The notes below the pieces were generated by a model, which was not told the origin of the DNA, searched no databases, and was given only the letters and a program-made list of their open reading frames with translations. Below, one piece after another: positions 223-19,740 of a stretch of 20,319 nt of DNA. The DNA is taken from IMG/VR virus record IMGVR_UViG_3300028833_003500, positions 1 to 20,319 of that record; one strand, given 5' to 3'. Position numbers and translations under genes: made by a program. The stretch is from a virus. The first letter of the stretch is position 1. Every line of letters starts with the position of its first letter.

Positions 223-1521
223 ATGTTTGGAAAACCATTAGCATATATTGTAAGAATTAAGGATATCCGAGAGATTCCTGGGGCGGACAGAATTGAACTT
301 GCTACGGTTATGGACTATACTGTAGTCGTTAAGAAAGGTGAATATCAACCTGGTGATCTTAGTTTGTATGTAGAAGTAGATTCACTTCTTCCAGATGGTT
401 TGTCTGATGAACTTCGTGCTAAATATACTGCTATTAAGGAAGGTAGAGAATTAGCGGATGCTACAAAGGAAGAAATTGAAAACGCTCTCAAGGCAATTCA
501 AGAATCTTCTAAGTACCCATATTTTGAATTTCTCAGAGATAAGAAGTTCAAAATCAAGAGCATGAAGCTTGGAAAGTTTGGTGTTATTTCTCAAGGTATT
601 CTTTTCAAGCCTGCAGATCTTGGTATTACTGATGCAAAGGTTGGTAAGGATTATACTCTTCAATTCGGCATTACTGAAATTGTCCAAGATGAAGAAGAAG
701 CTGGTCTTAATACTGGTAAGAAGGATAACTGGCTTGTTCGCAAGCTTATGAGATATACTTGGTATCGTAACTGGAGGAAGCGTCATAACGTTTCTGAAAC
801 TTGGGATCCAACTAACCCTGGAAAGTCTGACGAGGAAAACGTCCAAAAGGTTTACACCAAGATGTTTGAACAATACAAGGGTAAGAAATGGGTTAAGACT
901 GAAAAGCTCGAAGGTCAAAACATTACCGTTTTCTCTGAAAAGATTGAACCAAGTTGGTTTGATAAGCTTTTCCATCGCAATGTGGAAAGCAAGAGAATCG
1001 GCGTATGTTCTAGAACTAGGGAACTTAATAAGAATGGTTCTGGAAAGGCTTTCTGGGACACAGTTCTTAGACTTAAACTTGATGAAAAAATCAAGAAGAT
1101 TCCAGGTGAATGGTTCTGCCGTGGTGAACACGTCGGTCCAGGTATTCAAAAGAATATCTATAACCTTCCAAGAACTGATATTATCTTCTTCGACTTTTAC
1201 AAAAAAGTTTACTTCGAAGATACTATAAATAGAAAAGTATTGTTCAAGTGGGAAAAGTTGAATTTCGAAGATTCTGTTCTTTTCGCTGAACAATGGGGAT
1301 TGAAGTTCGTTCCAGTTCTTGATGACAATTACGAATTACCAGAAGGTCATGTAAATGATAAGGGTGTATTCGTTTCTGGTGCTGACATCATGCTTCAAGA
1401 ATCTGATGCAAATACCGTTTTCGGTAACAACCTCAGTCATAAAAGAGAAGGTTTCGTTCTTAGACTTCGTGACGACTATAACGTTTCGTTCAAGGTCAAG
1501 AATCCTAACTACAGTATTTAA
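223..1521 (+). CDS. ATP-dependent RNA ligase, DRB0094/Rnl2-like family
   Basis: N-terminal module LAYIVRIKDIREIPGADRIE...GDLSLYVEVDSLLP typical of this family; nucleotidyltransferase motifs I (TEKLEG), III (RGEHVGPGIQKN), IIIa (FFDF), IV (REGFVLR), V (FKVKN). Confidence 0.85.
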   Translation: MFGKPLAYIVRIKDIREIPGADRIELATVMDYTVVVKKGEYQPGDLSLYVEVDSLLPDGLSDELRAKYTAIKEGRELADATKEEIENALKAIQESSKYPYFEFLRDKKFKIKSMKLGKFGVISQGILFKPADLGITDAKVGKDYTLQFGITEIVQDEEEAGLNTGKKDNWLVRKLMRYTWYRNWRKRHNVSETWDPTNPGKSDEENVQKVYTKMFEQYKGKKWVKTEKLEGQNITVFSEKIEPSWFDKLFHRNVESKRIGVCSRTRELNKNGSGKAFWDTVLRLKLDEKIKKIPGEWFCRGEHVGPGIQKNIYNLPRTDIIFFDFYKKVYFEDTINRKVLFKWEKLNFEDSVLFAEQWGLKFVPVLDDNYELPEGHVNDKGVFVSGADIMLQESDANTVFGNNLSHKREGFVLRLRDDYNVSFKVKNPNYSI

Positions 1522-7524: not shown

Positions 7525-7878
7525 TTATTCCTCTGTATCGTCTGCTTCAATTAAAGACTTAAGTAACCAATTTTTAATATTTATAAGCTTTTTGCTATGT
7601 GACACATCAAGCTGCTGAACCATTAAACTAGCAGTATAGAAATATCCACTTCTAATTAAAGAAAGAATACTTGGAACTACATTAATAATTGGAAGCATAT
7701 CTGATTGTGTAACTTCTAACAATTTTTCATGCAAATCTCTATCCAGATATGGTGCAATTTTGTAATTCCAATCAAGACCGGATATATGACTTGCAGAATT
7801 AAATAAATCATAATATGCACCATAAAATGCATTATTATAATTTTGTGAAATCTTTTCTTTATTATAAGTAACTAACAT
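7525..7878 (-). CDS. Hypothetical protein, 117 aa, putative fibre assembly chaperone
   Basis: Lies between the two fibre genes; GAGGA RBS; paralogous motif shared with 3449-4093. Confidence 0.55.
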   Translation of the reverse strand: MLVTYNKEKISQNYNNAFYGAYYDLFNSASHISGLDWNYKIAPYLDRDLHEKLLEVTQSDMLPIINVVPSILSLIRSGYFYTASLMVQQLDVSHSKKLINIKNWLLKSLIEADDTEE

Positions 7879-7890
7879 ATATCCTCATAA

Positions 7891-10800
7891 TTAATTTGTT
7901 CTTGTTCTAAAGCCAACATATGGTTTAATACCGCCAAATTTATCCATTGAACCGGCGTTTGCAAAATTATAATATGGTCTGGTAAAATCAAGTGTTGTTA
8001 TATTTTCTAAACCTAGCCATGGTTTTGGATTACCAATATCTACGGTTGTATTCGAACCCATGCCTAAACCAAGAACATTGTGCCAAGTTCCGCCATGGTT
8101 ATTAAGTTTATCAATTCTTATACATACATAATATAATTGTTCAGGATACATTGTACCTAACTCTTCTATTGGGTATAAGTTTCTTGTATTCATTACTACC
8201 TGACCACCAGCTGTCGGAATTAATCCATATTCACTTTCCCATAGCATTTTTGCTTGACCAGCAACACCTTCATAAACAGCAATAGAAACATATTCGTTAG
8301 AATCAGCATTACCGCCATTCATATATGCTTGTGTTAATGGACTAAATTCATATTCTATTGCTGGTCTAAATAAGTATGAATATTGCATACTACCAACCAA
8401 ATTTCCAACAGTATTTAAAGCACCGAATGGGATAGTTTCAGTCATACGACCATTAATAGAATTAACTAACTTATCAAATACTACTGGGTCAATTGGAGTA
8501 TCTGTAGAACCATTTGTAAGTGTAAGCTGATTATTGCTATTTAATGTGAAAATCTGATTATCATAATTAAGACCAATCTTTCTACTATCATTATTGACAG
8601 AAATTGGACTATCACCAATATAATCGTTCATGAGAACACTATTATCATTAGTGCTTACAACTTCTTCAACAATACTTGCTGTAACATTCAAATGAGCAGT
8701 TGCTGGAATTTCGCTACCGCCATAAACAACACAGTATTTTCTTGTTGGAGCAACAGTATGGTCAACTGTAATAGCAATAGTAGCATTGCTAGTTCCGACT
8801 TCTGTTGGGTAGTAATTTTGAGTAGAAACAAGTTCTGTATTGTCAGTAGCACTCAATATGAGCTTATTTAATAAGTAAGCGTGTGTTCCTGGGTTATTAT
8901 TGTCAATGGTTTCATTGATACAGAAAGTAAATTTATTTGTCGTTTCTGGTAATGTAATCAAACCATTTTCATCAACTACAATATTATGATAATTAGTTCC
9001 GTTAAATGGAATTATTGTGCCAGCAGAAACAACACTTGTGCTTCTGTAAGTATCATACATGTATTCCAAATCATTAGCACTTAAACCAACGTCCCATGTA
9101 TTTGTTTCAGCATTATATTCTGCAGAAACACCATTACTTCCAACAATTTCAGCACCAGAAATGAAGTAATAATCCTTATCGTTGTATGTTCCAGACTGTG
9201 CCATTGCATACTTTGCAGAAATATCATAGAATACAGGTTCTGGAATTTCACCCTTCTTTACGTAATCTCTTTCAACTGTTGCTGATAAATCATCGATTGT
9301 TGCAGAAACTTCATCAATAGCACCAAATAATGTTGTACAAACATCTGCAATTTGATCAACGGTATTATCAAATTCATCTTGATCAACTTTTTCGTTAAGT
9401 TCTGTAGACCAATCTTTTGCACTTAATGTAAATGTTGTCTTGTCTTCATCACGAGCTGTTGCAACATGTAATAAAGCTTCATCTTCAGAAACAACATTGT
9501 AAGAACCGCCTAATGTAGCTAGATTAACACCTTGCCACTTAGAACTATCTCCATCCTTGACTAAGAAATATGCTAAACCAGCAGCACTGATAATATCAGA
9601 AGCAGAAGTAACCCAATCACCAGAAGCAATCTGAATAGAACTTACAGAACTGATTGCAGAAAATTGTTCGATTGTTAACTTATCTTGTTTTGCACTGAGT
9701 TCATTTGTCCAGTCATAACCAGAAATACCATAATCATCAGTAATCTTAATATATTCATTAGCTGCAGTATAAGTTGGAACTACTGGAATATCTGTCTTCT
9801 TAGCATATTCACTAGAAACAGTAGCAGATAAATCGTCAAAGTGGTTATCAACTTCTGTTTTTGTATAATACTCAGTTAACTTTGATGCACTGACATATTC
9901 ACCAACAGGCTGGAATGTCTCATTAGCCCAGCTAGAAGTTTCTCTAAATTCTGCATTAACTTCAGACTTAGTATAATAATTGTCTAAGGTAGTTGCACTG
10001 ACATAATTACCAATCGGCTGGAATGTTTCATTAGCCCAAGCAGAAGTTAAATCGAACATTGCACTAACTTCAGTCTTAGTATAATACTTTAATAATTCTG
10101 CAGCTAATTCTTCATCAGTTACATAACCTTGTAAATCAATAGATGCCATACCTACGCAAACAAAGTCATATAAACTTGTTTGTGCATCTTTCTTCCAAAT
10201 CCATTCTCTATAATTATCTTTTTCTTGTAAATCTGAAACTTTAGTTAAATAAATAGTTTTTTCATTTGGAATAGAACCATCTGATAATTTACCATCGATT
10301 AAAACTGGTTTTCCTAAATTTTGTTCATCACCATTTACAATTCTAAAACCGCCAAAATTAGCAAGTAATTCATCAATTTCTTCTTGAGAATAAGTTTCAT
10401 CCTTTTTATAATAATTATCTAAAGATGCACTTGTAAGATAATCACCTTTAACTTGGAATTTACCATTTGCCCAAGCAGAAGTAGCATCAAATTGTGCATT
10501 AACATCTGAAGTTTTTGCATATGGTTCTAATGCATCAGATTTTAAATAACCTTGACCATTTACCCAATTTTGAGTAGTGGAAACAGCTGCAGCAGAAGCT
10601 TCACGTGCATATTCTTTTGTTGCATAATTACTTAAATCTGCTTCTTTCAAATAATGCTGGTTTGTAACCCAAGTAGTTGCAGAATTAACTGCTGCTGCAG
10701 AAGCATCTTTTAATTCATTATGAGAAACTACATCAGCGGTAAGATTAATCTGATGTCCAATAACCTTAATTCCATCTCCGCCATAATAAGCTTCAGCACC

Positions 10801-11178
10801 AGGAATATTATCAAAACGTTCATTGACCCATGCTGCAGAGGCATCAAATTCACGTCTTACATCAGCTGATAAAGCATATGGTTCAAGGTTTACTTGTTTT
10901 AAAAATCCTTGTTCATTAACCCAATTTTTAGAAGCATATGGGTCAAAAACAGATGGATGAATCTGTTGTGCAGAAATACCAGAAGTATTGACCTTAATCT
11001 TGTCATCAGAAATAGCAATAGTATTATCAGCAGGTGTTAATTTATTTTGCTTATTATCTATTACATTTCTTACTTTTTGACTCAATTTTAATGGTGTTCC
11101 GCTAAGACCATTACCTTCAAGGGTATCATCATGTTTTACTGAATTTATAGCAAGTACTTTACCGTTTTTTATAATCAT
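7891..11178 (-). CDS. Long tail fibre-like protein, 1095 aa
   Basis: Multiple shaft repeats (SAAWVN, W(V/A)N..Q, YY.K.EV), KQDKLT/KQNKLT motifs, beta-rich C-terminal region; late-promoter box and AAAGGA RBS upstream. Confidence 0.75.
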   Translation of the reverse strand: MIIKNGKVLAINSVKHDDTLEGNGLSGTPLKLSQKVRNVIDNKQNKLTPADNTIAISDDKIKVNTSGISAQQIHPSVFDPYASKNWVNEQGFLKQVNLEPYALSADVRREFDASAAWVNERFDNIPGAEAYYGGDGIKVIGHQINLTADVVSHNELKDASAAAVNSATTWVTNQHYLKEADLSNYATKEYAREASAAAVSTTQNWVNGQGYLKSDALEPYAKTSDVNAQFDATSAWANGKFQVKGDYLTSASLDNYYKKDETYSQEEIDELLANFGGFRIVNGDEQNLGKPVLIDGKLSDGSIPNEKTIYLTKVSDLQEKDNYREWIWKKDAQTSLYDFVCVGMASIDLQGYVTDEELAAELLKYYTKTEVSAMFDLTSAWANETFQPIGNYVSATTLDNYYTKSEVNAEFRETSSWANETFQPVGEYVSASKLTEYYTKTEVDNHFDDLSATVSSEYAKKTDIPVVPTYTAANEYIKITDDYGISGYDWTNELSAKQDKLTIEQFSAISSVSSIQIASGDWVTSASDIISAAGLAYFLVKDGDSSKWQGVNLATLGGSYNVVSEDEALLHVATARDEDKTTFTLSAKDWSTELNEKVDQDEFDNTVDQIADVCTTLFGAIDEVSATIDDLSATVERDYVKKGEIPEPVFYDISAKYAMAQSGTYNDKDYYFISGAEIVGSNGVSAEYNAETNTWDVGLSANDLEYMYDTYRSTSVVSAGTIIPFNGTNYHNIVVDENGLITLPETTNKFTFCINETIDNNNPGTHAYLLNKLILSATDNTELVSTQNYYPTEVGTSNATIAITVDHTVAPTRKYCVVYGGSEIPATAHLNVTASIVEEVVSTNDNSVLMNDYIGDSPISVNNDSRKIGLNYDNQIFTLNSNNQLTLTNGSTDTPIDPVVFDKLVNSINGRMTETIPFGALNTVGNLVGSMQYSYLFRPAIEYEFSPLTQAYMNGGNADSNEYVSIAVYEGVAGQAKMLWESEYGLIPTAGGQVVMNTRNLYPIEELGTMYPEQLYYVCIRIDKLNNHGGTWHNVLGLGMGSNTTVDIGNPKPWLGLENITTLDFTRPYYNFANAGSMDKFGGIKPYVGFRTRTN
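9841..10086 (-). repeat. 108-bp (36-aa) tandem repeat, about 2.3 copies
   Basis: YYTK(T/S)EV begins at 10086, 9978 and 9870; TS(A/S)WANETFQP(I/V)G.YVSA occurs twice, 108 bp apart. Confidence 0.85.
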
Positions 11179-11202: not shown

Positions 11203-11210
11203 TATTTATA
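11203..11210 (-). promoter_or_regulatory. T4-type late promoter box TATAAATA driving the fibre operon
   Basis: The plus strand reads TATTTATA, 25 nt upstream of the fibre ATG. Confidence 0.65.
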
Positions 11211-11244: not shown

Positions 11245-11252
11245 TATAAATA
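11245..11252 (+). promoter_or_regulatory. T4-type late promoter box TATAAATA driving the three leader-bearing genes
   Basis: Exact match followed by AAGGAG RBS and the ATG at 11272; divergent from the box at 11203-11210. Confidence 0.65.
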
Positions 11253-11271: not shown

Positions 11272-11907
11272 ATGAAAAAAATGGCAGAAGCTATTAAAGT
11301 TATTAAAGAAAACGGTTATAAAATCATAAAGGAAGATGTTTATACATCAAATTTCCAGCTTAATCAAAGAATTAAGGAATATTTGGAAAATGATAAGTTC
11401 ATTATTGTTCTTCTCATTGGTATGTATGGACGTCAGGTAGACTTCGAAAAGCGTGGTAGACGCACAGTTTTACGTAATTTTAAAGGTTTTAACCAAACTG
11501 ATGCTGCTTACCTTTCTCCATTAGCAGAAAAAGTTCAGAATGGTCAAGTTTTGACCCCACGTGAACTTGCTTTCGTAAAGTCTTGTTTAAGAAAATACAA
11601 AAATACACAATGGTCTGAAGTTCTTAAGGAACTTGGTTATGTTAGAGAAGAAAAGAAACCAGGACGTAAGATTGAACTTTTCTTCGATGAAATGGAATTT
11701 GCTCCAATTGATGATGATGAAATCGAAACTATAGTTCCAAATTCTGAAGCAGACTATATCGCAAAGGCTTTATCTTTAGCTCAGGAAGATGGTGGTATGC
11801 TCGACGATGAAGATTTACCAAGAGCAAAACAAATCGCTGCTGACCTTTATAATCAAGGTCTTATTGCACCACAAGACGCTGCAGATAGAATTAACGAAGA
11901 ACTCTAA
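11272..11907 (+). CDS. Leader-bearing protein 1 (putative internal head protein), 211 aa
   Basis: N-terminal leader EAIKVIKENGYKIIKE; central RQ..E...T...N.KGFNQTDA.YLS..A......LTPRE...LRKY..Q segment resembles a conserved phage domain of unknown function (recalled, not searched); acidic tail. Confidence 0.6.
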   Translation: MKKMAEAIKVIKENGYKIIKEDVYTSNFQLNQRIKEYLENDKFIIVLLIGMYGRQVDFEKRGRRTVLRNFKGFNQTDAAYLSPLAEKVQNGQVLTPRELAFVKSCLRKYKNTQWSEVLKELGYVREEKKPGRKIELFFDEMEFAPIDDDEIETIVPNSEADYIAKALSLAQEDGGMLDDEDLPRAKQIAADLYNQGLIAPQDAADRINEEL

Positions 11908-11925: not shown

Positions 11926-12357
11926 ATGAACTTAAAAGAAGCTATAAAAATTTTAAAAGAAAATCATTACAAAATAAAATCTCCTTTATTAAATGAAGCT
12001 GAAATACGCTTTAATACTGCTGATGATTATCTGGCATATCGTTCTAAACTTATAAATTCTTCTTGGGCACAAAATACCGTCCAAATAGGCTGTCAAAATA
12101 CCATTCTCTCCGAAAAAGAACTAAATGCTACTGGTAAAGACATTGGCGAAATTGTCATTGAACGTTATTGTAAGGATTTTGAATCTAATAAAAAAGATCT
12201 TCAGGAATCTTGGAATTTAGGTTGGGAATCAGAAGACCCAAATCCAATGACTGAAGATACTTTTAAGAAATTAAAGAGTAAAAAAGCAGTTTATGAAGAA
12301 TGTAATGCTATTTACCAAAAAGGTGCAATAATGCATGCATTTTTAAATAATTTTTAA
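11926..12357 (+). CDS. Leader-bearing protein 2 (putative internal head protein), 143 aa
   Basis: N-terminal MNLKEAIKILKENHYKIKSPLLNE; remainder unrecognised. Confidence 0.6.
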   Translation: MNLKEAIKILKENHYKIKSPLLNEAEIRFNTADDYLAYRSKLINSSWAQNTVQIGCQNTILSEKELNATGKDIGEIVIERYCKDFESNKKDLQESWNLGWESEDPNPMTEDTFKKLKSKKAVYEECNAIYQKGAIMHAFLNNF

Positions 12358-12370
12358 TTAAGGTTTTAAA

Positions 12371-12979
12371 ATGAACTTATTAGAAGCAAGAGAAATACTC
12401 AAAAAGAAAGGTTACACTGTTCATAGACTTAACGAATGTGGCGGTTTTAGCGGCGGTTGCGGCGGAAGCAGCAGTTATAGTTCTAGCTGTGGCAGTAGTG
12501 GTTGCGGTTCCAGCTATAGCTCTGGATGTGGTAGTAGCAGTAGTTATGGTGGTGGATGTGGTACAATATCCAGAAGCGTCAGAGTAGGTTGCGGAACTTA
12601 TATTTCTGATAGTTGTCATAGTAGTGGTTGTGGTGGTTATTATTATGACGATGATGAAGATGAAACACCAGAAACTATTATTGTCAAAGGTAAAAGATAT
12701 GAATTTGCTGGATATAATTCATATTATGGTTGTGCAGAATATACTAATTCCAGAACTGGTAAAACTATACTTGATGTAACTAATAATGAAAGACCATCTA
12801 AATTTTCAAAAATTATAAGTCTTGCTCGTAAATTAAGAATTAGTGAAGTAAGAACAGTTGAAATAATTGAAACTTTATATGAATCTGGTATTAGTCGTGA
12901 AATTGCATATAATTTACTTGCTAAATTAAATATGCTACCAGATAAATTACTTAGAATGCCAATAACACATGTTAAATAA
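12371..12979 (+). CDS. Leader-bearing protein 3 with Gly/Ser/Cys-rich repeat region, 202 aa
   Basis: Leader MNLLEAREILKKKGYTVHRLNE, then 9 Cys in residues 23-87 (8 followed by Gly), an acidic DDDEDE linker and a globular C-terminal part; AAGG RBS. Confidence 0.7.
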   Translation: MNLLEAREILKKKGYTVHRLNECGGFSGGCGGSSSYSSSCGSSGCGSSYSSGCGSSSSYGGGCGTISRSVRVGCGTYISDSCHSSGCGGYYYDDDEDETPETIIVKGKRYEFAGYNSYYGCAEYTNSRTGKTILDVTNNERPSKFSKIISLARKLRISEVRTVEIIETLYESGISREIAYNLLAKLNMLPDKLLRMPITHVK

Positions 12980-12995
12980 CTAAGTTTAAATAATA

Positions 12996-13030
12996 TAAAA
13001 AGAGTCAAGAAAACCTTGACTCTTTCTTTT
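12996..13030. terminator. Bidirectional intrinsic terminator
   Basis: AAGAGTCAAG-AAAAC-CTTGACTCTT with flanking A and T runs, between convergent genes. Confidence 0.8.
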
Positions 13031-13230
13031 TAACCACATGTAGTAGGACCACCACATCTCATATAAAATCCACAACTATACGATACCCATTGTGGAGGAT
13101 TTCCAAAATGTGCATTGGCATAGTCATAATAACCACCAGTTCCACATCCTACATATCCACCACAACCAGTAATTTTGAGTTGTTTCATACCTGCGGTTTT
13201 AAGTTTTTGTCTTAATTCAGTTAATGTCAT
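13030..13230 (-). CDS. 66-aa leader + Cys-Gly core peptide (candidate RiPP-like precursor)
   Basis: GAAGGT RBS; ATGA overlap with the radical SAM stop; all five Cys are followed by Gly; the leader aligns without gaps to 12371-12979. Confidence 0.7.
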   Translation of the reverse strand: MTLTELRQKLKTAGMKQLKITGCGGYVGCGTGGYYDYANAHFGNPPQWVSYSCGFYMRCGGPTTCG

Positions 13231-14156
13231 AATATACCTTCTTCACCATTCTTTTTCAATAACCAATCAATATATACTGGATCATTTTCATATTCAGATA
13301 TATCATCTGTCAATGAATAATCACCAAATATCCATCTTTCAAATTCTGTATTTGTTACTAGATCCCAGTCATCATAAACTTGACCGTCAATAGTAATCAA
13401 AATATCATTTACAAATATCTTATTACCATAAACTACTTTAGAATGTTCCAAACCTCTATGATAACTGATTAATGTATCACCGTCCCAGAATCTATCGTCA
13501 TTACAAACCATACAACCACCAGAACTTTCATATTCATATTCAAGAATTAATTTCTCAAATACATCATCTCTGTTCTTTAAAGTATCTTTCGTAATATTCC
13601 TATAATCTGCTCTGATACAGATAGAAACATTTTCTAATGGTCTATAAGGTTCTATAAACTGTTTAAATTCTTCTAGGTTAAATTCCTTAGAAAGAACAAC
13701 ATTCAATTTAATATGTTTCTTAATTAAATGTGCAAAAATATTGATAGGCAAGACATCTTCATAGAATTTCTGATGCATATGTCTTGAAATATTCAAACCG
13801 CCGATTTTATCATTCTTGTTAATAAAATCAATCATTGTCATAATTTTCGCAGTTTCTATAGTTCCAGGAATTTCTGCAAATGTAGGAAATGTCGTATTGA
13901 TATAAACTGGTTTCTTCATAGCATCAATAAGAATCTGACATTTCTCAATATCTGCTAATGGTTCTCCACCTGTTAATACAAATTCTTCAATTAACGGATT
14001 TTCATTAAGTTTTTTGATTTGTGCAAGAATTGCATCAATATCACAAGTTCTTTGTTTATACATCTGCTTAGATGTACAGAACTTGCAATGATTATTACAA
14101 TCCCATGGCACAAAAATCGTGCAACTTAAATTACTTCTCCCTTTAATATATCTCAT
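13227..14156 (-). CDS. Radical SAM enzyme of unknown specificity, 309 aa
   Basis: CxxxCxxC (CNNHCKFC), LTGGEP, YINTT and LNISRH core motifs; an extra CxxC (GGCMVC); C-terminal ILITIDGQVY hairpin. Confidence 0.9.
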   Translation of the reverse strand: MRYIKGRSNLSCTIFVPWDCNNHCKFCTSKQMYKQRTCDIDAILAQIKKLNENPLIEEFVLTGGEPLADIEKCQILIDAMKKPVYINTTFPTFAEIPGTIETAKIMTMIDFINKNDKIGGLNISRHMHQKFYEDVLPINIFAHLIKKHIKLNVVLSKEFNLEEFKQFIEPYRPLENVSICIRADYRNITKDTLKNRDDVFEKLILEYEYESSGGCMVCNDDRFWDGDTLISYHRGLEHSKVVYGNKIFVNDILITIDGQVYDDWDLVTNTEFERWIFGDYSLTDDISEYENDPVYIDWLLKKNGEEGIL

Positions 14157-14159
14157 ATT

Positions 14160-14810
14160 TTATACAAGTTTAATTAATCTATAATACTTATCACTATCGT
14201 AGAATCGATCAGCAATCGCATACTTATTATTTTCTTCATCTTCTGCTAAAACGATTCCACCATCAAACCTACTAGTTCCAGAATATCCAATTAATGCCAT
14301 TGGTGTATCTTCATCAAACTCAGCAACACTCATTTTAATAACACCATTAACAAGATATTCGGTGTTATCAGTTGAAACATTAATAAATGGAGTTGAAAAT
14401 GCGTCAAGTTCTTCTAATTCTTTCTTAAATGCATTGTTAATAAGAATATAATTACCTGCACAACGGCGAGTACTTGTTCTAATAGAATTACATTCCTTCA
14501 TTAAATGAGTTAATAATACGCCACAACGTTCTTCTTTAGAAGCTGCAGACTCTGGATCTTTGTGTATTTCAATAACCTTAGCCACATCCATACATGCATG
14601 AATTACATCTAATTCTTTCTTACTTTCATCACTTGCATCTTTCCAATCTTTTTCATGGATAAGTTGTCTTTCAAGACCCAATGTTAATTCTGGACGGTCA
14701 GCTTCTCTACCATCGAATAACAGTTCTCTTGGAATATATCTTAAAACGGATGCACAGTTTTTAAATAATCCGTCTTTCTTCTGGACTTTAATTAAGTCTT
14801 TAATTGTCAT
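14160..14810 (-). CDS. Truncated gp23-like major capsid protein paralogue A (216 aa from ATG 14810)
   Basis: Segments matching T4 gp23 as recalled: DLIKVQ, LGLERQLI, LLTHLMKECNSIRTSTRRCAGNYILIN, LIGYSGTSRFDGGIV, KYYRLIKL. The start at 14810 has an AAGGT RBS and aligns with the start of paralogue B. Confidence 0.7.
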   Translation of the reverse strand: MTIKDLIKVQKKDGLFKNCASVLRYIPRELLFDGREADRPELTLGLERQLIHEKDWKDASDESKKELDVIHACMDVAKVIEIHKDPESAASKEERCGVLLTHLMKECNSIRTSTRRCAGNYILINNAFKKELEELDAFSTPFINVSTDNTEYLVNGVIKMSVAEFDEDTPMALIGYSGTSRFDGGIVLAEDEENNKYAIADRFYDSDKYYRLIKLV

Positions 14811-15312
14811 TTTGTAACCTTTGTCTTTCATCTCTTGTTAATAGCCTTTGATTTGTGCTTCCCCTAAACTTTAAATTCAAATCTCTCTGTTCAAGAATAA
14901 ATGGTCCGTCAACCAGAATATCAACCATTTCTAATAAAGAAGAAGTTAACCCATTTATATTTTGACACTGACCTTCTAATAAATCTTTTTCATAAATATA
15001 ACCAGTAAATAACCAAACATTTTTACCAGGATATGCACGTTTGAAATTAGCAATGAGCTTATAGATTTCTGCTTGGTTTTCTTTTTCCATTGGTTCTCCA
15101 CCAAGAACTGTCAAACCAGCAATATATGGTTTATTACAAGCTTCAATAATTTCATTTTCTGTAATTTCTGTATATGGTTGACCATAATCAAAATTCCAGG
15201 TTTCTGGATTAAAACACCCTTTACAATGATTTCTACAACCTGAAACAAAAAGTGTTACTCGACAACCGTCACCATCGACAATACTCATTGGATCAATTTT
15301 ACTGTAATTCAT
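14800..15312 (-). CDS. nrdG: Anaerobic ribonucleotide reductase activating enzyme (radical SAM)
   Basis: SIVDGDGCRVTLFVSGCRNHCKGCFNPETW, LTVLGGEP, DILVDGPF, FRGSTNQR. Confidence 0.95.
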   Translation of the reverse strand: MNYSKIDPMSIVDGDGCRVTLFVSGCRNHCKGCFNPETWNFDYGQPYTEITENEIIEACNKPYIAGLTVLGGEPMEKENQAEIYKLIANFKRAYPGKNVWLFTGYIYEKDLLEGQCQNINGLTSSLLEMVDILVDGPFILEQRDLNLKFRGSTNQRLLTRDERQRLQNDN

Positions 15313-15958
15313 CTTTTACCCTTAAAAGTCTATAATAATTCTCTGTTCCTTCCATATCGGTATTAATTGAAAAATGAGTCTCGGTAGGACTAAGTGCTGC
15401 AATAGCACCACATACACACGAATTATTAGAATGATATGCCATAATAGCTTCTGGATAATTTGAATAATCATCAAAGTCCATTTTAAAAGCATCTCTACCG
15501 ACAATTTTTAATACACCTGGAGCAGATTCAGTAATAAATTGACAATTCATAAAACCAGATGTTAAGTCATGTAATAAATCATACATCTTAGTATTCAATA
15601 CAATAATATTACCAAAGCCTTGATGTGTTGCAATAGCAATATCATTACAAAGTTGTATTATCTTAGTAACAATCGTTGATGCACGTTCAATTCCGGAATC
15701 GTGCCAAAAAGGATCATTACCTATTGGGTTTTTCATTTCTGTAACTTTTGCAACCTGCTTACATGCTAAAACGATTTCTTTATATAAGTCTGAAGAATTA
15801 CTACATAAAGGTTGCCAATTTGGCGTATGACCATATTTAGGTTCAAAACTACCATATTCATAACCTTCTCTTATATCAGGTTTATATCGCATTACAGTTG
15901 GTAAACTATGTTCAAAATCAATTCCTCTTTGAACACCGACAAGATCCATTATACTCAT
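15299..15958 (-). CDS. Truncated gp23-like major capsid protein paralogue B, 219 aa
   Basis: MSIMDLVGVQ, IVTKIIQLCNDIAIATHQGFGNIIVLN, APGVL, FDDY and NYYRLLRV match gp23 segments as recalled; clear paralogue of 14160-14810. Confidence 0.7.
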   Translation of the reverse strand: MSIMDLVGVQRGIDFEHSLPTVMRYKPDIREGYEYGSFEPKYGHTPNWQPLCSNSSDLYKEIVLACKQVAKVTEMKNPIGNDPFWHDSGIERASTIVTKIIQLCNDIAIATHQGFGNIIVLNTKMYDLLHDLTSGFMNCQFITESAPGVLKIVGRDAFKMDFDDYSNYPEAIMAYHSNNSCVCGAIAALSPTETHFSINTDMEGTENYYRLLRVKDELQ

Positions 15959-16248
15959 TTTTTACTTTCCTTATCATATTTCAGTTTTAACCCGAGAAGG
16001 ATAAATATAAGTATAGTTGCCAAAGTATAATTTACATATTGCGGATATTGCCACATTCCACTTATATAATTAGTATAGAAAATATAAGCAGCACTACATA
16101 AATTACCGATAATTGACAAAATAATAAAGAAAATACTTATATCACCTGTCGACTTAGTTTTATAAGCTTTAATAACTTGTGGTAATGAACAAACTGCAAA
16201 AGCACCAGCTCCACAAAAACCACAAATTAACATTAAAGTATCTAACAT
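15955..16248 (-). CDS. PQ-loop / SemiSWEET-type three-helix membrane transporter, 97 aa
   Basis: SLPQVIKAYKTKSTGDIS signature and three hydrophobic segments; start placed at ATG 16248 behind an AAAGGA RBS rather than at the TTG at 16293. Confidence 0.85.
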   Translation of the reverse strand: MLDTLMLICGFCGAGAFAVCSLPQVIKAYKTKSTGDISIFFIILSIIGNLCSAAYIFYTNYISGMWQYPQYVNYTLATILIFILLGLKLKYDKESKK

Positions 16249-16265
16249 TCGCTTCCTTTTATTTA

Positions 16266-16293
16266 AAGATAGAAAAATCATACGGTTTTTCAA
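16266..16293 (-). promoter_or_regulatory. Possible sigma70-like promoter overlapping the nrdD terminator
   Basis: TTGAAA, 16 nt, TATCTT, ahead of the PQ-loop RBS. Confidence 0.35.
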
Positions 16294-16322: not shown

Positions 16323-18794
16323 TTAAATATTATGACGGTCTCTCAATTCTGCTAATTTTCCATCATTCCATGACTTGAAAATAGTCTTCTTAGGAGAACC
16401 AGTCAAATATCCGGTAATTCTTCTAACACGAATAATCTCATCTTCATTCTTGTTACCGCAACATGGACATTCATTATTGATGATTCCATGGAAATGGCAC
16501 TTAGTACAAGTATCACTATCAAATGTACAAGTGAAATATCCTAAGTCACCATCATACATAGCATCAATAGTTGCCTTGACTGCTTCAAGATTCTTAGACA
16601 AGTCACCGTTCAACTTATAATAGAAGATATGACCAGCATTTGTAATCTTGTGATAAGGTGCTTCCATCTTAATCTTGTTTTCAAGAGTAGTTTCCAAAGA
16701 ATAATCAAGCATGTGGCTATTTGTATAATAACCCTTACCGAAGACTCTCTGTAAATCTACATCAGCAAGCTTCTTTTCGTTCTGAAAAAGATTTTTATCG
16801 ATGTTAGCAAAACGACCTGCAACTGCTTCAGCCGGTGTAGCGAAACAAGACCAGTTCAAATGAGTTTCCTTCTGTGTCTTATCAACAAATTCACGAATAG
16901 TCTTTACAATAGAGAAAGCATAATCATCAATTTCATGGTCGACACCATAAGTCTTACCTGTCAAGAGTAACATGGTTTCAGCAAGACCGACGTAACCGAT
17001 TGACAACGAAGCCTGCTTAAGAACTTCACCAATCTTATCAGTAACTTCATGCGGTTGGTCATCAGATGTGAGATAAAGACCCTGTTGCATAGTGAACGGG
17101 AAATTCTCATATGTCTTGTTAGAAATCAATGCAAATCTGTCAAGCAAACTTCCCTTTGCATCTTCAAGCATTTCAGCAAGCTTTTCAAAGAAAATAGTCT
17201 TACGTTCTTGTTCATCTTTAGCTGCGATATGAGCTTCAATAGCAAGTCTAGGAAGGTTAATTGTATGGAATGCAAAGTTACCTCTACCAGTTGTCTGTTC
17301 AGCACCATTGATATTACCAATAACTCTAGTTCTACAACCCATAGTAGAAATAGTTGTATTTTCAATGAGCTTCTTCAACTTTAACTTATTTCCAGAAATT
17401 TCTTCAATTTCCCAATAATCACCTTGACCTACATCATACTGATAAACAAACTTATCAAACTTCTGATCTTGCATTGGAATAATTGTTGCTTCATCTTTAC
17501 CACGAACCTTAACACCAATAGCATTTTCAAAAATTTCAACTTCCTTAGTTTCATACTTGATGTATGGCTTATTGAAGGAACTATCGACCTTTACAAAGTT
17601 CGGGTAGAATCTACGAGCAAGACACTTAATAGAATCGAGATACAAATCATAGTTAGGATCTTCTGGATTCTTTGTATAACCTTTCATCAACTTGAAAATC
17701 AAGATTGGGAAAATTGCTGTCAATCCATCGCCGAGACCTTCCATCTGAGACTTAATAAGATTCTTGCTAATCATACGGCCACAATTAGAAGTATTAAGAC
17801 CGAAGTTCAAAGAACTGAATGGAACTTGGTTTCCTGAACGAGACTGTAAAGAATTCAAATTACCAATAAGACCTTCCATAGCCTGATGTGTATCATCATC
17901 TGTCTTCTGAATTGCCTTGATAACACAAATCTTAGGGAACTTAGTATAAAGAAGTGCAGAAGGCCAGTTCATAGAAGCTGTTGCAACTTCATCAAGATTG
18001 GTCATTTCTTCATGATCTGGATTATATTCTATATATCTTTCTAATTCTTCCTTAAGATTCTTTCTAAATGAAATATCGACAAATGGTGCTAAATCAAAAT
18101 CGAGATTATCATCAGCGATACCACCATATTGCTGGTTGGACTGAAGCTGAAGGATAACTGCTGTCAATGCTGCTGCAGTCTGGATTGACTTCGGAGAACG
18201 TAAGAAACCAGTTCCGGAGTCAAAACCATTCTTCAACAACTTTCCAACTGGAGCAAACAAGCAGTTGAATGTCAAATTATACTGGTTAAGGTCATGGATA
18301 TGTAAATGCCCGTCCTTATGTTCCTGTGCATACTTTCTGTTGATGTTATTCAACAGATTATACATCTTGTTCGTTTCAGATGCAATCTTACCGTATGTTC
18401 CAGCAGGAGTAGCACCAGACTCATTTGCATTGTCTCTTAAAATATTCGAACTTTTAATGTCAGATTCTGTAATTTCCTTAATGGTCTTTACAATTTCTGA
18501 TTTTGTTTCACGTGCACGGTTACGTTCGTCTCTATATAAAATAAATGCCTTGGCAACTGTTCCGAATCCGCTATTCATTAATGTTTTTTCAATAACATTC
18601 TGAATATCTTCAACTTTTGCTGACTTAGCATCATTTGCGGAAATCTTCTCGACTACTTCATCAACTAATTGGTCTATACCTTCTTCTGTATATTTTTCAT
18701 TTATTGATTTAAATGCATTTTCTATGGCTGTATATACTTTTGCAATATTGAATTTTCGTCTGCGATTATCTCGCTTAATTACGTTTTTAATCAT
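16323..18794 (-). CDS. nrdD: Anaerobic (class III) ribonucleoside-triphosphate reductase
   Basis: N-terminal ATP-cone (VIKRD...FN..KV), HIHDL, NC, QSRSGNQVPFSSLNFG, MGCRT, TPAE, YTNS, Zn site CxxC...CxxC, glycyl-radical loop RRITGYL. Confidence 0.97.
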   Translation of the reverse strand: MIKNVIKRDNRRRKFNIAKVYTAIENAFKSINEKYTEEGIDQLVDEVVEKISANDAKSAKVEDIQNVIEKTLMNSGFGTVAKAFILYRDERNRARETKSEIVKTIKEITESDIKSSNILRDNANESGATPAGTYGKIASETNKMYNLLNNINRKYAQEHKDGHLHIHDLNQYNLTFNCLFAPVGKLLKNGFDSGTGFLRSPKSIQTAAALTAVILQLQSNQQYGGIADDNLDFDLAPFVDISFRKNLKEELERYIEYNPDHEEMTNLDEVATASMNWPSALLYTKFPKICVIKAIQKTDDDTHQAMEGLIGNLNSLQSRSGNQVPFSSLNFGLNTSNCGRMISKNLIKSQMEGLGDGLTAIFPILIFKLMKGYTKNPEDPNYDLYLDSIKCLARRFYPNFVKVDSSFNKPYIKYETKEVEIFENAIGVKVRGKDEATIIPMQDQKFDKFVYQYDVGQGDYWEIEEISGNKLKLKKLIENTTISTMGCRTRVIGNINGAEQTTGRGNFAFHTINLPRLAIEAHIAAKDEQERKTIFFEKLAEMLEDAKGSLLDRFALISNKTYENFPFTMQQGLYLTSDDQPHEVTDKIGEVLKQASLSIGYVGLAETMLLLTGKTYGVDHEIDDYAFSIVKTIREFVDKTQKETHLNWSCFATPAEAVAGRFANIDKNLFQNEKKLADVDLQRVFGKGYYTNSHMLDYSLETTLENKIKMEAPYHKITNAGHIFYYKLNGDLSKNLEAVKATIDAMYDGDLGYFTCTFDSDTCTKCHFHGIINNECPCCGNKNEDEIIRVRRITGYLTGSPKKTIFKSWNDGKLAELRDRHNI

Positions 18795-18870: not shown

Positions 18871-18878
18871 TATTTATA
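18871..18878 (-). promoter_or_regulatory. TATAAATA box upstream of nrdD
   Basis: The plus strand reads TATTTATA, in the intergenic region 77 nt before the nrdD ATG. Confidence 0.45.
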
Positions 18879-19013: not shown

Positions 19014-19044
19014 AAAAAAAACTATGCAAAATTTTGCATAGTTT
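19014..19044 (-). terminator. Intrinsic terminator (perfect 26-bp palindrome plus T run)
   Basis: AAACTATGCAAAA/TTTTGCATAGTTT at 19019-19044, followed by a T tract on the minus strand. Confidence 0.7.
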
Positions 19045-19066: not shown

Positions 19067-19270
19067 TTAGAAACGAATTGTGAAATTAAACGCTTGATAA
19101 CCGTTAATCCAGAGTAACCAGTTAGGAGAAATTTCAAAATATTTGTAATGATAACTAGAATACTGAGTATTCCAAAAATCTATCTCCTTACAAAATTCAG
19201 AAGTGAAGAAAGGTGAACATGCAAATGACATGCCACATAGTAACAGTAAGATTCCAATTATTCTTTGCAT
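19067..19270 (-). CDS. Small exported, aromatic-rich protein, 67 aa
   Basis: AAGGA RBS 8 nt upstream; signal-peptide-like MQRIIGILLLLCGMSFA; overlaps the HNH stop. Confidence 0.6.
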   Translation of the reverse strand: MQRIIGILLLLCGMSFACSPFFTSEFCKEIDFWNTQYSSYHYKYFEISPNWLLWINGYQAFNFTIRF

Positions 19271-19740
19271 TTCTTTTTTCCTTTTTTAGTTTCTGTTTTT
19301 TCAGTTTTTTCAGTAGCTGCTGGTGCTTTAGATTTGACCATATTAGGCTGTTGTTTTACTGGAATATGTTTATCTAGGTCTACATCACCAATCGCGTCCA
19401 GAAGCACTCTTAAACGCGTTACAATCTCTTTTTTATTCTTACTATATTCTATCATACCTGCTAGGTCTTTTAACCTCATAGACCATCTATAATAGTCATA
19501 ATACTTAATACAGACTTTCTTCAGGTTAAACCCAGACTGCAATAATTCGACGTCTGGATAAGCTCTGGCAAGCAAATGATGTGCAATCATATGTTCCCTA
19601 GGGGTCAAATAAATCCAGTTCGTAGGCACGTCTGGACCACCCAATGACTGAGGAATTATATGATGCTTATCATATAATATCGATGGTTCTCTCCCTGCCG
19701 CTTTGGCAATAATTGCGAAATATGTTTTTAAATAATTCAT
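19258..19740 (-). CDS. HNH endonuclease-like protein (Mob-type N-terminal domain)
   Basis: KHHIIPQSLGGPDVPTNWIYLTPREHMIAHHLL; Lys-rich C-terminal tail. Confidence 0.8.
   Translation of the reverse strand: MNYLKTYFAIIAKAAGREPSILYDKHHIIPQSLGGPDVPTNWIYLTPREHMIAHHLLARAYPDVELLQSGFNLKKVCIKYYDYYRWSMRLKDLAGMIEYSKNKKEIVTRLRVLLDAIGDVDLDKHIPVKQQPNMVKSKAPAATEKTEKTETKKGKKKCKE

Follow-up and report, generated by a model that had tools for sequence, protein, structure and literature searches.

Two miniature gp23-type paralogues embedded in an anaerobic ribonucleotide reductase operon of a giant T4-like phage

The stretch of DNA analyzed here, hereafter the window, is the entire viral contig IMGVR_UViG_3300028833_003500 (20,319 bp), estimated to represent about 5% of the genome of a giant, uncultured, T4-like phage from ruminant-gut samples. 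A compact operon of seven genes lies on its minus strand and encodes, in order, the anaerobic ribonucleotide reductase NrdD, a PQ-loop protein, a protein of 219 amino acids (aa) termed mini-gp23 B (mini-B), the reductase activase NrdG, a 216-aa protein termed mini-gp23 A (mini-A), a radical SAM protein and a Cys/Gly-rich peptide (Table 1). The start of mini-B overlaps the stop of the PQ-loop gene in the letters ATGA, nrdG starts within the final codons of mini-B, and mini-A starts within the final codons of nrdG; an alternative upstream ATG at position 14831 would lengthen mini-A to 223 aa. The remaining genes of the window encode an RNA ligase, a Nudix protein, UvsY-like, Hsp20-like and tail-fibre-like proteins and a homing endonuclease, and no head gene is found among the window's genes. 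An earlier note, made from the sequence alone, had read the 216-aa and 219-aa open reading frames (ORFs) as mutually paralogous miniatures of the T4 major capsid protein gp23, located in a metabolic operon far from any head genes.

Homology searches substantiated this proposal. Mini-A and mini-B align with each other over their full length at 26% identity (BLASTP, E 1e-17), and by sequence the two are paralogues of each other, as had been claimed. The Pfam family PF07068 (Gp23) is matched by mini-A with 25.8-25.9 bits (E 8.9e-6; curated cut-off 24.4), by mini-B with 19 bits, which is under the cut-off (E 1e-3), and by 20 of 28 diverse minis at E <= 0.01. The real capsid gene with which the minis had to be compared was available from G001, a complete 415,750-bp phage genome with terminal repeats that is a near-identical relative. 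It encodes one full-length gp23-type capsid protein (the major capsid protein, MCP; 439 aa, E 8.3e-70), situated in the head region about 61 kb from G001's own mini pair, in agreement with the remoteness from head genes that had been asserted. This MCP is matched in BLASTP by mini-A at E 2e-14 and by mini-B at E 3e-9. Against the lineage MCP, profile-profile alignment with hhalign gave 98.0% for a profile built from the A and B families and 98.9% (E 1.2e-17) for one built from the 28 diverse minis, with mini residues 39-215 placed on MCP residues 185-426. The motifs VGVQ, LxLxRQxI, N.I..TRRG.GN.I, GYxG....DxG and YYR are present in the minis and all align with the lineage MCP, and the gp23 motifs named in the earlier note are thus all accounted for. 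The minis are only about 26-28% identical to any full-length gp23 found, the MCP of their own lineage included.

Structure prediction led to the same assignment. The AlphaFold models were confident for mini-A (pLDDT 82, pTM 0.80) as well as mini-B (pLDDT 89.9, pTM 0.87). In Foldseek searches, T4 gp23 structures stood at the top for mini-A (E 8.5e-8), and gp23-type proteins came first among the Foldseek-ranked predicted viral structures for mini-B. VIA-align gave Z 13.8 to gp23 for mini-A, and Z 14.2 to gp24 and 13.7 to gp23 for mini-B, which amounts to a tie; 191-203 residues were matched over gp23 106-519/520. On the strength of sequence and predicted structure, both minis are true gp23/HK97-fold proteins. 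Other annotation resources were less informative: in PHROGs mini-A matched only the generic major-head family and mini-B had no match, PADLOC and NCBIfam returned no match for either protein, and the ESM Atlas offered weak capsid-like leads only. A sub-threshold match of mini-A to DUF7854 (20 bits against a cut-off of 32) was seen in 0 of 27 other minis and was dropped.

Alignment to the lineage MCP and inspection of the models were used to dissect what the minis keep and what they have lost. The mini sequences set in where MCP residue ~100 lies, in the VGVQ strand, and are devoid of the propeptide and N-arm. The MCP segment 119-184 (~66 residues lying between ALRY and the following P-domain strand, with the E-loop and insertion domain in it) is reduced to a stub of 13-17 residues, modelled in mini-B as a small hairpin; the spine helix is 15 residues long, with a 26-residue gap against the MCP (two thirds lost), and the late P-domain hairpin (CPY...) is removed by an 18-residue gap. 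The A domain, the core P-domain strands, the short spine helix and the terminal YYR strand are kept; mini-A stops directly after the last strand and mini-B carries a tail of 5 residues. The list of missing parts in the earlier note is therefore correct with respect to both the hhalign gaps and the models. Its statement that mainly the axial domain is left does not hold, since the models cover gp23 106-519/520 with the P-domain sheet and a short spine helix kept. As modelled, the minis represent a minimal but complete HK97 core.

The full shell-protein architecture of the gp23 family is absent from the minis, and they are not the shell-forming head-module protein, a separate 439-aa MCP being encoded at the distance given above in G001. 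They fail the architectural definition of gp23 though they belong to the gp23 superfamily by sequence and fold, and judged from sequence and models they cannot plausibly build a shell. A role within the head, in which A and/or B would join the MCP as a vertex, capping or size/shape subunit in the manner of gp24 or of SaPIbov5 Ccm, is unlikely. It draws on the descent of the minis from the MCP with retention of the A domain that makes within-capsomer contacts, on the lack in G001 of a second full-length gp23/gp24-like gene (searched with Pfam Gp23 and the mini profile), and on the precedent of Ccm as a capsid-protein homologue able to redirect assembly (PMC8569155). The N-arm, E-loop and P-hairpin that tie capsomers together are, however, missing, the genes lie 61 kb from the head module within the nrd operon, two paralogues are kept where one would suffice, divergence is much faster than expected of a lattice component, and distant minis also occur in replication and nucleotide-metabolism regions.

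The minis were compared with known capsid-fold systems. T4 gp23/gp24 (PF07068; PDB 7VRT, 6UZC, 5VF3, 1YUE) are of the same family and fold, with the motifs VGVQ, ALRY, N.I..TRRG.GN, GYxG..D.G and YYR in common and Z 13.7-14.2, but the minis are about half their length or less, are encoded in an nrd operon instead of a head module, and in the tree fall outside a well-supported clade that contains 23 of 24 full-length gp23. The vertex protein gp24 is the top structural match of mini-B yet is tied with gp23, and the minis are half its length and without its connecting elements. The A-domain encapsulins of Family 4 (DUF1884, 2PK8; Andreas and Giessen 2021, PMC8346489) are, like the minis, truncated HK97-fold proteins adjacent to enzymes, theirs being found in anaerobes; unlike the minis, which are 216-219-aa phage proteins with a P domain, they are ~100 aa long, are made up of nothing but the A domain, come from archaea and Rhodothermus-type bacteria and show no gp23-like sequence. 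Direct adjacency to an enzyme within a conserved operon, by which Family 4 is characterized, is found for the minis too (B-nrdG-A, five lineages). No DUF1884 match was obtained: Pfam searches at E <= 0.1 for the window minis and E <= 0.01 for all 28 gave only Gp23 and the sub-threshold DUF7854. Classical encapsulins (Families 1-3) show no more than a general HK97-level similarity (Z about 10). The minis are not DUF1884 encapsulins, and they are probably neither gp24 nor classical encapsulins. The Ccm protein of SaPIbov5 (PMC8569155) is likewise an extra MCP homologue used other than as the main shell protein; it is satellite-encoded and joins shell assembly, whereas the minis are phage-encoded and without the lattice-locking parts.

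Five lineages, namely the window, G001, G002, L015 (L015-L017) and L029, have retained the arrangement mini-B, nrdG, mini-A with frames that overlap. Identity to the window is high for NrdD (G001 99%, G002 96%, L015 92%) and the PQ-loop protein (97%, 95% and 89%, respectively), lower for NrdG (G001 98%, G002 75%, L015 66%, L029 74%), and falls further for mini-A (98%, 71%, 42% and 53% in the same four) and mini-B (93%, 86%, 34% and 27%). The slots are fixed while their contents turn over fast, and the minis are the fastest-changing genes of the conserved operon. The B slot holds deeply different alleles. In G002 the synonymous divergence (dS) of the nrdG-A block exceeds that of the nrdD-PQ-B block, which points to recombination between the two blocks. 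A 637-aa gene with repeated Cys/His zinc-finger-like motifs is also found in G002 (L005:2568-4481, +) between nrdD and the PQ-loop gene; it is not present in the window. Outside this operon, one distant mini follows dUTPase and gp32 and lies next to a PD-(D/E)XK nuclease, another is near a Dda-like helicase and DHFR, and two lie directly 3' of metallophosphatase-type enzymes; none of the minis whose surroundings were examined has a head-module location.

These neighborhoods bring up the chief rival explanation, that A and B form a capsomer-like ring or oligomer stabilizing the oxygen-sensitive NrdG and NrdD, much as the A-domain encapsulins of Family 4 are associated with enzymes. The overlapping B-nrdG-A order, kept in all five lineages though the minis drop to 27-53% identity, speaks for such an enzyme-associated scaffold, as do the two distant minis directly after metallophosphatase-type enzymes and the others beside dUTPase/gp32 or DHFR. 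Family 4 encapsulins themselves are encoded downstream of hydrogenase, OsmC, GAPDH and DeoC, with a GAPDH complex reported (PMC8346489), and 2PK8, the structure of an A-domain encapsulin, aligns to model A over residues 91-216 with Z 8.5. On balance we regard the scaffold as rather unlikely: no enzyme partner is constant across the mini family, the nonsynonymous divergence (dN) of the minis is 2-13 times that of NrdG and NrdD, and no conserved cysteine or other cofactor-like residue was found across the 28-mini family alignment. Annotated non-structural neighbors in T4-like genomes are mostly nucleotide-metabolism genes anyway, and what Family 4 encapsulins do is itself unproven. For the minis, a role in redox or cofactor chemistry was rejected, no cysteine being kept across the family.

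Selection on the minis was assessed from pairwise dN/dS. At low to moderate divergence the ratio was 0.09-0.31 for mini-A and 0.29-0.59 for mini-B, as against 0.10-0.28 for nrdG, 0.03-0.11 for nrdD and 0.03-0.15 for the PQ-loop gene; for the minis, saturation of dS makes the values at the largest divergences unreliable. Selection on the minis is purifying but looser, and they are not pseudogenes. Neutral decay, which had been named beforehand as an outcome that would tell against the capsid-paralogue proposal, was not seen (dN/dS about 0.1-0.6).

The family extends well beyond the window. Word-based searches recovered full-length clusters, 27 of A (69-99% identity) and about 20 of B, almost all of them constant in length, and an exhaustive profile search recovered 81 proteins at E <= 1e-3, in which minis of ~190-250 aa rank ahead of full-length gp23. 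Family members start at a VGVQ-like strand and finish at the YYR strand, and what is conserved across the 28 minis are gp23 hallmarks: the R of ALRY, N.I..TRRG.GN, Y.G....D.G and KYY. In a tree of the shared region, 23 of the 24 full-length gp23 fall in one clade with 98% support and the minis lie on the opposite side; a single label change suffices to separate minis from full-length proteins, in a tree that is unrooted and has long branches. Phylogenetically, the minis do not appear as recent copies of each phage's own capsid gene, and a single origin is compatible with the tree. Cultured-phage records were searched by megablast with the region and by tblastn with mini-A, mini-B and four of the distant minis, and returned full-length capsid genes only.

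Three metagenomic relatives (P0064, P0074 and P0112) are short variants that resemble internal deletions. P0074 fuses the start of mini-A to its end, whereas in P0112 the mini-B start is fused to the start plus the end of mini-A, by which nrdG would be removed; they may be natural deletion alleles or assembly artefacts. Such deletions are what could be cited in support of decaying or functionless capsid-gene duplicates. This explanation is barely credible and for practical purposes refuted by frames that are intact and constant in length, both in ~50 clusters (90% level) and in 28 diverse members (50% level), by dN/dS < 1, by the confident compact predicted folds (pLDDT 82 and 90) and by the conserved translational coupling.

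Upstream of nrdD stands the octamer TATAAATA, the T4 late-promoter consensus, which G001 and L015 have also kept in spite of changes in the spacer around it. In G001 the same motif lies 58 nucleotides (nt) upstream of the MCP gene and also before neighboring head-region genes. All six copies in the window are oriented with the downstream gene, and the majority are found shortly before a gene start, including those of tail-fibre-like genes and nrdD. Their count (6 against 3.6 expected) is not significant alone; it is the placement that counts, and this placement fits T4-type late promoters. The operon is thus probably at least partly late and hence co-expressed with the capsid protein. The motif being common to the operon and the MCP gene would suit a head component as well.

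A further small gp23-derived gene is kept in the lineage of the minis. It is an ORF of 73 aa (L011:1408-1629, minus strand, corresponding to about 232.9-233.1 kb of G001) that reads as a copy of a single strand segment of gp23 (VGFKG....GIIYCPY) to which a basic helical tail is appended; it scores 28 bits against Pfam Gp23 and reaches E 4e-6 in BLASTP with the lineage MCP. Its conserved family comprises 37 clusters, many with a length of exactly 73 aa, located on the huge contigs that also carry the minis. As far as sequence comparison can tell, small gp23-derived proteins recur in this lineage.

The reading that we favour, tentatively, is that the minis are soluble, non-assembling mimics of the capsid core with a role in conflict. 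All lattice-locking elements (the propeptide and N-arm, the E-loop with the insertion domain, and the late P-domain hairpin) have been lost. The minis would be translated in a coupled way with NrdG and NrdD, and would probably be transcribed together with the real capsid protein from a T4-type late promoter; they would then act by protein-protein binding and not by catalysis or shell building. As folded look-alikes of the gp23 core they could occupy a partner that recognizes newly made capsid protein. The likeliest partner would be a host factor that senses T4-type capsid proteins, and the alternative one the assembly pathway of a co-infecting relative or satellite. Two diverged paralogues might cover two partners or make a mixed oligomer. 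The roles put forward in the earlier note, namely decoys, modulators of assembly and a repurposed oligomeric scaffold, are all still candidates.

The mimic is favoured because the lost parts are the locking elements and the conserved part is the gp23 signature, and because no other genes of the conserved operon change as fast as the minis, whose alleles turn over while their sites stay fixed. It is favoured, too, because the family is patchy, restricted to uncultured T4-like phages and found in changing non-structural contexts, because the late-type promoter is common to the operon and the MCP gene, and because the lineage also keeps the 73-aa gene made from one gp23 strand segment. Finally, T4-type capsid proteins are known triggers of host defence, as in the Gol/Lit system (PMC3014915), and capsid triggers of host defences have been reviewed (PMC13728456). 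A functional analogy is offered by competitive inhibitors of sensors for structural proteins, such as DSAD1 acting against DSR2 (PMC11087589), in which a phage protein interferes with a host sensor of a virion protein as the minis are envisaged to do; DSAD1 does not itself copy the virion protein that is sensed, unlike the minis, whose target is hypothetical.

Several observations weigh against the mimic. No published precedent for a capsid-fold decoy was found in the literature, and a mimic that binds an activating sensor could trigger it instead of blocking it. That the overlapping B-nrdG-A order stays fixed across deep divergence is more readily expected of a partner of NrdG than of a free-floating accessory gene, and the conserved motifs may simply be requirements of the fold. 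The argument from rate is modest, as mini-A and nrdG have equal dN/dS in the sole unsaturated comparison. The earlier note had also proposed that both minis begin at about the gol-peptide region that triggers the Lit defence in T4. The position probably stands, inasmuch as the mini N-terminus matches the most conserved early segment of gp23 (VGVQ...ALRY); of this segment only the two flanking strands are kept, and the central P-M-x-x-P-x-G-x-A-F, common to 20 full-length proteins, is replaced by variable sequence. Lit-type recognition cannot be assumed because of this replacement.

Capsid mimicry could also be directed at competitors, with the minis entering the capsomers of co-infecting phages or satellites and stopping lattice growth in a dominant-negative manner, the resident MCP having diverged enough to escape. 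A retained core minus its locking elements is the expected look of a chain-terminating subunit, and fast allele turnover at a fixed site would agree with such a weapon. The proposal is purely inferential and without a precedent that we found, and the minis are no closer than stated above (about 26-28% identity) to any full-length gp23 found, that of their own lineage included; we consider it very unlikely. The boldest form of the favoured mimic reading, namely that the minis are the first capsid-fold immune antagonists, made together with the MCP, binding host sensors or chaperone-type detectors without triggering them, and part of a wider habit of giant phages to keep small copies of virion proteins, is doubtful.

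The remaining features of the window are collected in Table 1. The PQ-loop protein is highly conserved (89-97% identity, with the dN/dS already given). The Pfam NRDD model matches NrdD in two stretches, the best C-terminal stretch starting at residue 476, which suggests that several tens of residues are inserted as compared with typical NrdD. The radical SAM gene, which starts 3 nt past the mini-A stop, is missing from the L015 lineage. The Cys/Gly-rich peptide and three divergently transcribed plus-strand proteins have the N-terminal motif L.EA..ILK..GY.I in common, and one of those three (202 aa) also contains a long Cys/Gly/Ser-rich stretch. An HNH-type homing endonuclease lies just upstream of the operon promoter region, and a tail-fibre-like protein repeats Y(A/V)....(V/F)....(S/T)(A/S)W(A/V)N many times in its first half.

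Table 1. Coordinates of the operon, its putative signals and other features of the window.
Feature	Coordinates	Strand	Length (aa)	Evidence or remark
HNH-type homing endonuclease	19258-19740	-	160	PHROG 655, E 2.3e-24
Terminator-like hairpin	19019-19044	-		Upstream of operon promoter region
TATAAATA before nrdD	18871-18878	-		77 nt upstream of nrdD
nrdD, anaerobic ribonucleotide reductase	16323-18794	-	823	First gene of operon; ATP-cone, NRDD and glycyl radical domain; PF13597 E 1.1e-149
PQ-loop / SemiSWEET-like membrane protein	15955-16293	-	112	Between nrdD and mini-B; Pfam PQ-loop E 3.1e-13; NCBIfam SemiSWEET_2 below cut-off
mini-B, miniature HK97/gp23-fold protein	15299-15958	-	219	ORF, BLASTP, Pfam, model
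nrdG, anaerobic ribonucleotide reductase activase (radical SAM)	14800-15312	-		Between the two minis; Pfam Fer4_12 E 1.3e-48; NCBIfam TIGR02491 169.7 bits (cut-off 126.1)
mini-A, miniature HK97/gp23-fold protein	14160-14810	-	216	ORF, BLASTP, Pfam, model
Radical SAM protein	13227-14156	-	309	
Cys/Gly-rich peptide	13030-13230	-	66	Last gene of operon
Terminator-like hairpin with T-run	12997-13027	-		Closes operon
Divergent protein	12371-12979	+		
Divergent protein	11926-12357	+		
Divergent protein	11272-11907	+		
Tail-fibre-like protein	7891-11178	-	1095	
Other TATAAATA motifs	11203-11210, 7578-7585	-		
Other TATAAATA motifs	11245-11252, 2822-2829, 1224-1231	+		

Overall, tailed phages, herpesviruses and encapsulins all build their shells with the HK97 fold, and here two stripped-down copies of it are under selection outside the head module. 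The mini family is apparently new, as no description of it, and no paper on truncated gp23 paralogues in T4-like phages, was found in the literature on truncated gp23 paralogues, capsid decoys and exapted HK97 proteins. If the minis bind NrdG or NrdD, the puzzle of the A-domain encapsulins would be extended to phages and radical enzymes. If they mimic the capsid for host sensors, they would constitute a new class of counter-defence and provide a probe for the cellular detection of capsids. Either way, the minis come close to the smallest natural HK97 core (~190-220 aa), which would be useful for protein engineering and for the annotation of huge phages.

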